Positions 39 to 912 of a stretch of DNA of 35,919 bases are shown here, one piece after another. Source of the DNA: Escherichia coli (GTDB taxonomy: Bacteria; Pseudomonadota; Gammaproteobacteria; Enterobacterales; Enterobacteriaceae); the NCBI RefSeq assembly GCF_003334305.1, contig NZ_QOWS01000032.1. One strand, 5' to 3'. The translations under genes and the position numbers were made by a program. How positions within the stretch are numbered: position 1 is the stretch's first letter; each line of letters starts with the position of its first letter. The notes beneath the pieces are model-generated. The model was not told the DNA's origin and searched no databases. It saw only the letters and a list, made by a program, of their open reading frames with translations.

Positions 39-509
39 TTACTGTAAAACCGTGGCCAATATTACTTGACCACTACAGTGTGAATTACCACCCTTAATTG
101 TCGTTCCATTGCTGATACCACCTGTATAAACGTCCTGATTGCCACTGTCGATTATCGTACCGGTGGAAATGCCCCCGTCATGAATTGTCTGTCTTCCTCC
201 GTTAATGGTTGTATTATTAGCCTGCCCCACAAAATTGTTATGACTTCCTACATCTTGATATCCACCCGATTCAATAAGACTTCCATTAGATACCCCGCCA
301 TGAACATTCTGCTGGCCATGGTTGATAATATGAGTGTTATTTGTTGTACCTCGTTCATCTACTCTTTGGCTGCCATCTACAGTCTCATCGTTTACCACAC
401 CAATAACATCAGGAGTGAAGGCCGTCATCCCAGGCGGGGCATATATCAAGGCAGATATCAATAAGGAAAGTACTGAGCGGCGACAATAATAGGGACTGGT
501 CCTGTTCAT
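39..509 (-). pseudogene. Truncated autotransporter (AIDA/Ag43-like) adhesin, N-terminal fragment: signal peptide plus first passenger repeats
   Basis: Minus-strand ORF 39..638. Internal Met at 509 (MNRTSPYYCRRSVLSLLISALIY, signal-peptide-like) has an AGAGG Shine-Dalgarno about 10 nt upstream. It is followed by degenerate Gly/Asn/Thr-rich repeats (GGxSxGTxIxxGGxQxV) typical of autotransporter passenger domains. The ORF stops at TAA 39..41 after about 155 aa, far short of a full adhesin. Confidence 0.45.
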
Positions 510-912
510 AAATTTCATCCTCTGAAAAGTGAATACTGAGTAGCGTTTAAGCGACCTTAGCTTTGCTGCAACATCAGCCCACAGGCACCAGACCAGGGGA
601 TTCATCCTGAAGAGACAGCGCAAGTGTATTGTGTTCACCGCTCATCAAAGACATCATGATGAAATGATGATATTCCGCATAAGAATGAGGCATTTTTTAA
701 ACGCAGTGCGCTGAAGTGTGGTTGGATAAAAAAGTCAATCCATTCAGGAAATACGGGCGTATTCTTTTCTTTCGACAATGAGGCCGTTGGCAAAATAAAA
801 TGATTTACATAATCGTTTCTGATGAATATCTTCTGCTCACATAAAAATCACACAATAACTTTGAGATCGCAGATTGTTTTACTTTTACAGCATTCGTCCC
901 CCCATTGTTGGG

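Follow-up and report, generated by a model that had tools for sequence, protein, structure and literature searches.

YpjA/EhaD is an AIDA-type autotransporter that is associated with biofilm formation (PMC9289746; PMC12547504). The intact protein of Escherichia coli K-12 is 1526 residues in length and belongs to the type Va autotransporters. It contains seven stretches of the strand-loop-strand repeat TIGR04415, multiple AIDA domains, a Pertactin-type autochaperone region (PF03212) in its C-terminal part, and a β-barrel that is matched by TIGR01414 at residues 1083–1526 and by PF03797; in the Pfam analysis, the Pertactin and PF03797 domains are both located in the C-terminal 800 residues. Secretion of the type Va requires the C-terminal barrel, and usually also the autochaperone, for export and folding of the passenger; a type Va passenger that lacks a barrel remains in the periplasm, where it is degraded. 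Here, we analyzed the ypjA-like open reading frame (ORF) at the beginning of a 35,919-nucleotide stretch of E. coli DNA (contig NZ_QOWS01000032.1, referred to as the window below). Like K-12 YpjA and EhaD of enterohaemorrhagic E. coli, the feature lies at the orthologous locus, and it has the same flanking genes, the same start codon, a signal-peptide-like N-terminus and the first AIDA-type repeats. Different from them, it has neither the remaining repeats, nor the Pertactin-type autochaperone region, nor the PF03797/TIGR01414 barrel. We conclude that it is very probably a dead 5′ remnant of the chromosomal ypjA (ehaD) gene of a phylogroup-B1-like E. coli, produced by insertion of an insertion sequence (IS) and by an IS-associated deletion.

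The identity of the gene is supported by both homology and position. A megablast search with bases 1–700 of the window gave matches in 5356 of 5426 complete E. coli genomes, the set to which all genome counts refer, and the feature beneath these matches is ‘adhesin-like autotransporter YpjA/EhaD’. In tblastn, residues 1–147 of K-12 YpjA aligned with window positions 509..69 at 90% identity (E-value 9e-77). At the DNA level, K-12 ypjA and the window are 94% identical over 440 nucleotides (blastn), and the nucleotide identity of the remnant to ypjA alleles of phylogroup B1 is 97–99%. The ORF has one significant match to the Pfam AIDA repeat PF16168 (E-value 9.5e-6) and one stretch of the NCBIfam repeat TIGR04415 (40–42 bits, cut-off 30). 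The autotransporter similarity is far beyond chance. An earlier sequence-only reading had proposed a minus-strand autotransporter-like ORF at this place, to be given up if a database search showed no similarity to autotransporters; the ORF is confirmed, with corrected boundaries. Besides the ORF, tblastn with K-12 YpjA found no other YpjA-like coding sequence in the window. The NCBIfam equivalogs of Ag43, AIDA-I and BafA gave weak matches to the ORF (21–48 bits, compared to cut-offs of 700–1200), and membership of those families was rejected. Assignment of the N-terminus to yejO was rejected as well, as the database searches led to ypjA/ehaD.

The remnant occupies the position of a ypjA orthologue, between the ssrA island and pinH′-ypjCB-ileY, in the form of a pseudogene. 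Its right-hand neighbours are the same as those of K-12 ypjA: a 39-residue ORF, a pinH-like recombinase fragment, the ypjCB pseudogene and a tRNA-Ile gene. Further to the right, the K-12-like order continues with an alpha-amylase-family pseudogene and glaH-lhgO-gabDTP, on to emrAB, luxS and gshA. Since the gene order is that of K-12, the window is E. coli chromosome. The best genome match is strain A7, isolated from orangutan faeces, which is 100% identical over the first 25 kb of the window.

The boundaries of the ORF differ from those of the gene. In the mechanical ORF list, the ORF is on the minus strand, 199 codons in length, and runs from GTG 638 to TAA 39..41; its middle part is rich in Gly, Asn and Thr. 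The true start of ypjA is the ATG at 507..509 (MNRTSPYYCRR...), which is conserved and annotated by RefSeq; a GAGG motif can be read 9 nucleotides upstream of it. Because K-12 YpjA and all RefSeq annotations begin at this ATG (MNRTSPYY), the 43 codons at 510..638 of the minus strand are 5′ leader, wrongly included in the mechanical ORF, and not protein. For the same reason, the signal-peptide-like segment starts 43 codons into the listed ORF. A 39-residue ORF, annotated as ‘hypothetical protein’ (WP_001120794.1; 574..693, minus strand), overlaps the leader stretch in a different frame. All strains examined have this small ORF annotated directly before ypjA, on its upstream side, and it has a counterpart beside ymgJ at a paralogous locus.

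At the other end, we aligned the window with uninterrupted alleles (O121:H19, E24377A and K-12), a comparison that the earlier reading had recommended. The window matches these alleles from base 78 upward and none of them below, placing the last ypjA-derived base at 78. By homology and RefSeq annotation, the ypjA/ehaD remnant is located at 78..509 of the minus strand; it covers codons 1–144, which encode the signal-peptide-like N-terminus MNRTSPYYCRRSVLSLLISALIYAPPGMTA and then AIDA-type β-helix repeats over ∼115 residues. Translation from ATG 509 gives 156 residues, and the YpjA homology ends after residue 144. The last 12 codons, CSGQVILATVLQ, together with the TAA form a read-through tail at 39..77 (minus strand). 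The tail codons (77 to 42) and their stop lie inside an IS, antisense to the final codons of its transposase. The TAA at 39..41, at which the sequence-only reading had the ORF end, is unrelated to ypjA.

Only 144 of 1526 codons (∼9%) are left, the distal 91% being gone. Residues 1–30 encoded from ATG 509 align with the N-terminus of K-12 YpjA; with basic residues in the n-region and a 12-residue hydrophobic core, they form a Sec signal peptide, as judged by alignment and inspection. The passenger is reduced to the ∼115 residues, with one TIGR04415 stretch compared to the seven stretches and multiple AIDA domains of intact YpjA. The PF03212 region is absent from both the remnant and the window. 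No barrel sequence was found by tblastn in the window or in the 12 kb leftward of the equivalent position in M8, and none is annotated in the 18 kb leftward in A7. The sequence-only reading, which saw here an adhesin of the autotransporter type left with its signal peptide and the first repeats of its passenger, and with no room for the passenger bulk or the β-barrel, is thus supported. As a functional type Va autotransporter, the remnant fails three of the four defining features, and it is non-functional as an adhesin because the autochaperone region and the β-barrel are missing. The 156-residue product could presumably neither insert into the outer membrane nor display a passenger; it would be periplasmic at most, and any such product would probably be degraded.

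The sequence that interrupts ypjA is the right end of a 1258-bp IS3-family element, located at 1..77 on the plus strand of the window and assigned by RefSeq annotation and by identity to the IS in M8. Positions 1..77 are 100% identical to positions 1182–1258 of the element as delimited in M8 (L001 10820..12077). The last 69 nucleotides of the transposase coding sequence, up to the TGA at 67..69, lie in this part, and so does the terminal inverted repeat, which covers about 52..77 and ends in ...CCACTACA. The two ends of the element are TGTAGTGG...CCACTACA, and 19 of the 26 terminal bases match between the inverted repeats. In RefSeq, the coding sequence of the IS is joined in two pieces and labelled ‘IS3 family transposase, programmed frameshift’. 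The element is of the IS3 family in its length (within ∼1.2–1.5 kb), its imperfect repeats of the form 5′-TG...CA-3′, and its two-frame transposase expressed through a programmed –1 frameshift; both RefSeq and PLSDB label it ‘IS3 family transposase’, with no finer name. It shares 65–67% nucleotide identity with an IS911 copy in the same locus. Truncation by mutation or rearrangement, one of the options given by the sequence-only reading, is borne out by the IS at 1..77 and the IS-associated deletion, a cause which that reading had missed.

In A7, M8 and 55989, the left end of the IS, TGTAGTGGCACAC, abuts a yfjP-like GTPase-family gene, which is cut after 288 nucleotides and ends ...GATCTGCCGGG at the IS. 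In these three genomes, the element lies between ...CCGGG (left) and GTGTGAA... (right); with GGG on one side and GTG on the other, there is no target-site duplication. An IS that lies without a duplication between unrelated sequences points to an IS-associated deletion or recombination. In A7, the 18 kb leftward consist of the IS, the cut GTPase gene, island genes and phage genes, and contain no remainder of ypjA, which speaks against the suggestion that the gene continues in another frame just past the window edge. By tblastn, no further YpjA sequence was found in the window or in the 12 kb leftward in M8. When the whole genome of H240, which has the same junction, was queried with the 4150-nucleotide remainder of K-12 ypjA, the only match was 345 bp in length and 1.55 Mb away; this match lies at the minE-ymgJ locus, in a paralogous remnant of the barrel. 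These comparisons indicate that the distal ypjA is deleted from these genomes, not just displaced. Compared to CP4-57 of K-12, the left flank shows only 68% identity, to yfjP over 182 nucleotides; therefore, the island is another CP4-57-like element than that of K-12, and K-12 does not reveal how large the deletion is. By analogy, the deletion may be about 14 kb in size.

The junction between the IS and ypjA′ seen in the window occurs in 197 of the 5426 complete genomes, including 55989 and several O104:H4 outbreak isolates; the junction between the GTPase′ gene and the IS occurs in 141. We also considered that the IS had simply been inserted, the rest of ypjA lying at intact length across the IS just outside the window, so that the gene would be split and not deleted. 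The window ends inside the IS and is by itself compatible with this alternative, and the exact arrangement does exist. We constructed the junction predicted for a simple insertion (distal ypjA, GTG and the left end of the IS), searched for it, and found it in five genomes. In three of them (S1-CAM-02-A, FREC5 and MARGA_3; L011, L012 and L013), both junctions are present as ...TTATGTG-IS-GTGTGAA..., where the distal ypjA abutting the IS left end reads ...CCACTTATGTG; in O121, where the allele is uninterrupted, the corresponding sequence is TTAT GTG TGAA, with a single GTG. GTG is found on both sides of the IS in the three genomes, in agreement with the 3–4-bp target-site duplication that a simple insertion of an IS3-family element produces. 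However, A7, which is identical to the window over 25 kb, has the GTPase′-IS junction; three simple-insertion genomes compare with 141 that have this junction; and those three are only ∼98.2–98.4% identical to the window over the shared 5 kb. In addition, their distal ypjA, 1258 bp off across the IS, is frame-shifted by a 1.3-kb deletion, so the gene would be dead either way. We therefore consider a simple insertion in the window very improbable. The simple insertion is instead the precursor of the deleted form: an IS3-type insertion at codon 144 of ypjA with a 3-bp GTG duplication.

Two further genomes, 2013C-3181 and SCU-106, keep the junction between distal ypjA and the IS (L009 8400/8401; L010 7400/7401) and have lost the window-equivalent 78..466 without replacement. 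This loss represents another deletion next to the IS, which arose independently from the same ancestral insertion.

The allele that received the IS was apparently dead already. When the IS and one GTG were removed in silico from the S1-CAM-02-A sequence, an ORF of 968 codons was obtained, followed by a change of frame. The change is caused by a deletion of ∼1.3 kb compared to K-12 (nucleotides 2790–4096), with loss of the Pertactin-type region and of the barrel's first half. O121:H19, which is free of the IS, carries the same ∼1.3-kb deletion. By parsimony, this suggests that the IS entered an allele that was already dead, and ypjA in this B1-type clade would have lost its function before the IS arrived. 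At the joint of the ∼1.3-kb deletion, the alignments overlap by 13 bp (O121:H19, L004 6645..6657; L011 3783..3795), and a separate 108-residue barrel ORF (WP_000444409.1) is left. E24377A, which was compared by annotation and is also without this IS, has a split annotation with a frame-shifted passenger and a separate 108-residue barrel ORF. E24377A further shows an independent disruption, in which an IS66-family element (L002 4546..6895) lies ∼105 nucleotides further into ypjA than the IS3-family site of the window.

Based on these alleles, a two-step origin can be proposed. In the first step, the 1258-bp IS3-family element would have transposed into codon 144 of ypjA and duplicated GTG. In the second step, an IS-associated deletion would have removed everything between the IS and the yfjP-like GTPase gene, including all of the distal ypjA; the GTPase gene would belong to the island integrated at ssrA. 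Insertion sequences, including those of the IS3 family, cause adjacent deletions by recombination between two copies or by intramolecular transposition, and either mechanism may have acted here. The locus resembles such IS-mediated adjacent deletions in its unrelated flanks without duplication, in its surviving simple-insertion relatives, and in the independent deletions on either side of the IS. The end state would be the native upstream region, signal peptide and ∼115 passenger residues, fused to 12 IS-encoded codons and a stop.

Three points weigh against this explanation. Only 77 bases of the IS lie in the window, and its left junction is deduced from the genomes that match best rather than seen in the sequence itself. 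Of the 197 genomes that share the right junction, about 53 have another left flank. Moreover, the description of the remnant as non-functional draws on established knowledge of the barrel requirement of type Va secretion.

The remnant, whose upstream region is intact, might still yield, by transcription and translation, a 156-residue exported fragment composed of signal peptide, short β-helix and a 12-residue IS-encoded tail. Either this fragment or the conserved leader, whose small ORF is duplicated at the ymgJ locus, might have gained its own role; we see only a very slim chance for this. If true, the new role would sit in the B1 lineage that includes O104:H4. It is extremely unlikely that the truncated ORF has been retained as a small exported protein with a function, made of the signal peptide and a short β-helix, or that the conserved leader gives a regulatory product. 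The upstream region, ribosome-binding site and start codon are intact, and all of the 40 listed genomes, from varied hosts, show 100% identity over window positions 1..200, a stretch that includes the IS-ypjA′ junction. However, this identity reflects recent common descent of one lineage and not demonstrable selection. Two related genomes deleted this segment (window-equivalent 78..466) without replacing it, the C-terminal 12 residues come from antisense IS sequence, and a type Va passenger without a barrel is expected to be degraded in the periplasm. No convincing minus-strand promoter was found upstream of ATG 509: a scan of 1..1400 for consensus promoters and terminators was at chance level, with four promoter sites compared to 2.5 expected and none upstream of ATG 509, a result that is uninformative either way on the expression of ypjA′. 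The Rfam scan of 1..4000 found a tRNA at 3549..3621 alone, and nothing in or near the ORF.

A sequencing or assembly artefact, namely a chimeric join of an IS copy and ypjA, might be suspected because IS copies are classic sites of misassembly and this IS is found at up to 17 places per genome, but it is effectively refuted by the population data, as 197 complete genomes that were sequenced independently share the identical junction, and others have the reciprocal left junction with the matching 3-bp duplication.

The remnant left by IS insertion and deletion is an ordinary and already annotated feature, with nothing unexpected. In every carrier examined, RefSeq labels it ‘adhesin-like autotransporter YpjA/EhaD, incomplete, missing C-terminus’, beside ‘IS3 family transposase’. 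The window is an instance of this known IS-ypjA′ pseudogene of 55989, the O104:H4 outbreak strains, M8, A7 and others, with no difference from it. In the literature searched, we found no specific account of the disruption of ypjA by an IS; the papers describe YpjA/EhaD only as a biofilm-associated autotransporter. The locus is one more case of IS-driven decay of a non-essential E. coli adhesin gene, and matters little alone. In practice, short 5′ probes or adhesiome tools that accept partial matches would score the lineage, including 55989 and O104:H4, as ypjA-positive with no more than 9% of the gene remaining. Three allelic states have survived, namely simple insertion, left deletion and right deletion, and they provide a clean natural series of an IS3-family insertion followed by adjacent deletions.

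Another ypjA-like remnant is the barrel remnant by minE at the ymgJ locus, which we take to be ycgI/ycgH in K-12 naming. Like the remnant in the window, it has the ypjA upstream region (window-equivalent 539..894, 89–95% identity); different from it, the opposite end of the gene is kept, and the upstream region directly abuts the last 345 nucleotides of the barrel with no IS. In the window, this conserved upstream region, comprising promoter and leader, is located at 539..897 on the minus strand, as defined by matches of 87–95% identity next to ymgJ and barrel remnants. The region is repeated at the minE-ymgJ locus in most E. coli and in about a dozen plasmids (also at L007 4420..5118 and L015 3659..4300). 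Its direct contact with the last 345 nucleotides of a ypjA-like barrel was seen in the H240 sequence, and in several plasmids from abutting match coordinates. As the upstream copy abuts the barrel end, this arrangement amounts to another ypjA-like remnant, truncated in the opposite sense, and its junction contains no IS. The H240 sequence (NZ_OL790696.1; L007) is a 4.8-Mb E. coli chromosome that is filed in the plasmid collection as ‘plasmid unnamed’; NZ_CP134663.1 and NZ_CP141089.1 are two more chromosomes misfiled there.

To the right of the upstream region, an internal fragment of a pinH-like recombinase gene is located at 917..1084 (minus strand), missing both termini according to RefSeq. 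It is followed by ypjCB at 1421..2794 (minus strand), which is split by an internal stop into ORFs at 1422..2165 and 2180..2794 and has a pseudogene annotation in each of the strains examined, K-12 among them. These ORFs (1422..2794) had also been considered as Shigella plasmid effectors; the assignment was rejected, as database searches led to the chromosomal ypjCB pseudogene. The alpha-amylase-family glycosyl hydrolase gene is at 4180..6432 on the plus strand; an internal stop is annotated in M8, which is ∼97.5% identical to the window here, and the gene is intact in O121:H19 (L004 13213..15468). At the far end, comparison with M8 places window positions 35711..35919 in a repeated region around a tRNA-Arg gene (window-equivalent 35747..35823 by the M8 annotation), where the alignments are offset by ∼100 bp; this suggests variation in the copy number of a tRNA repeat unit.
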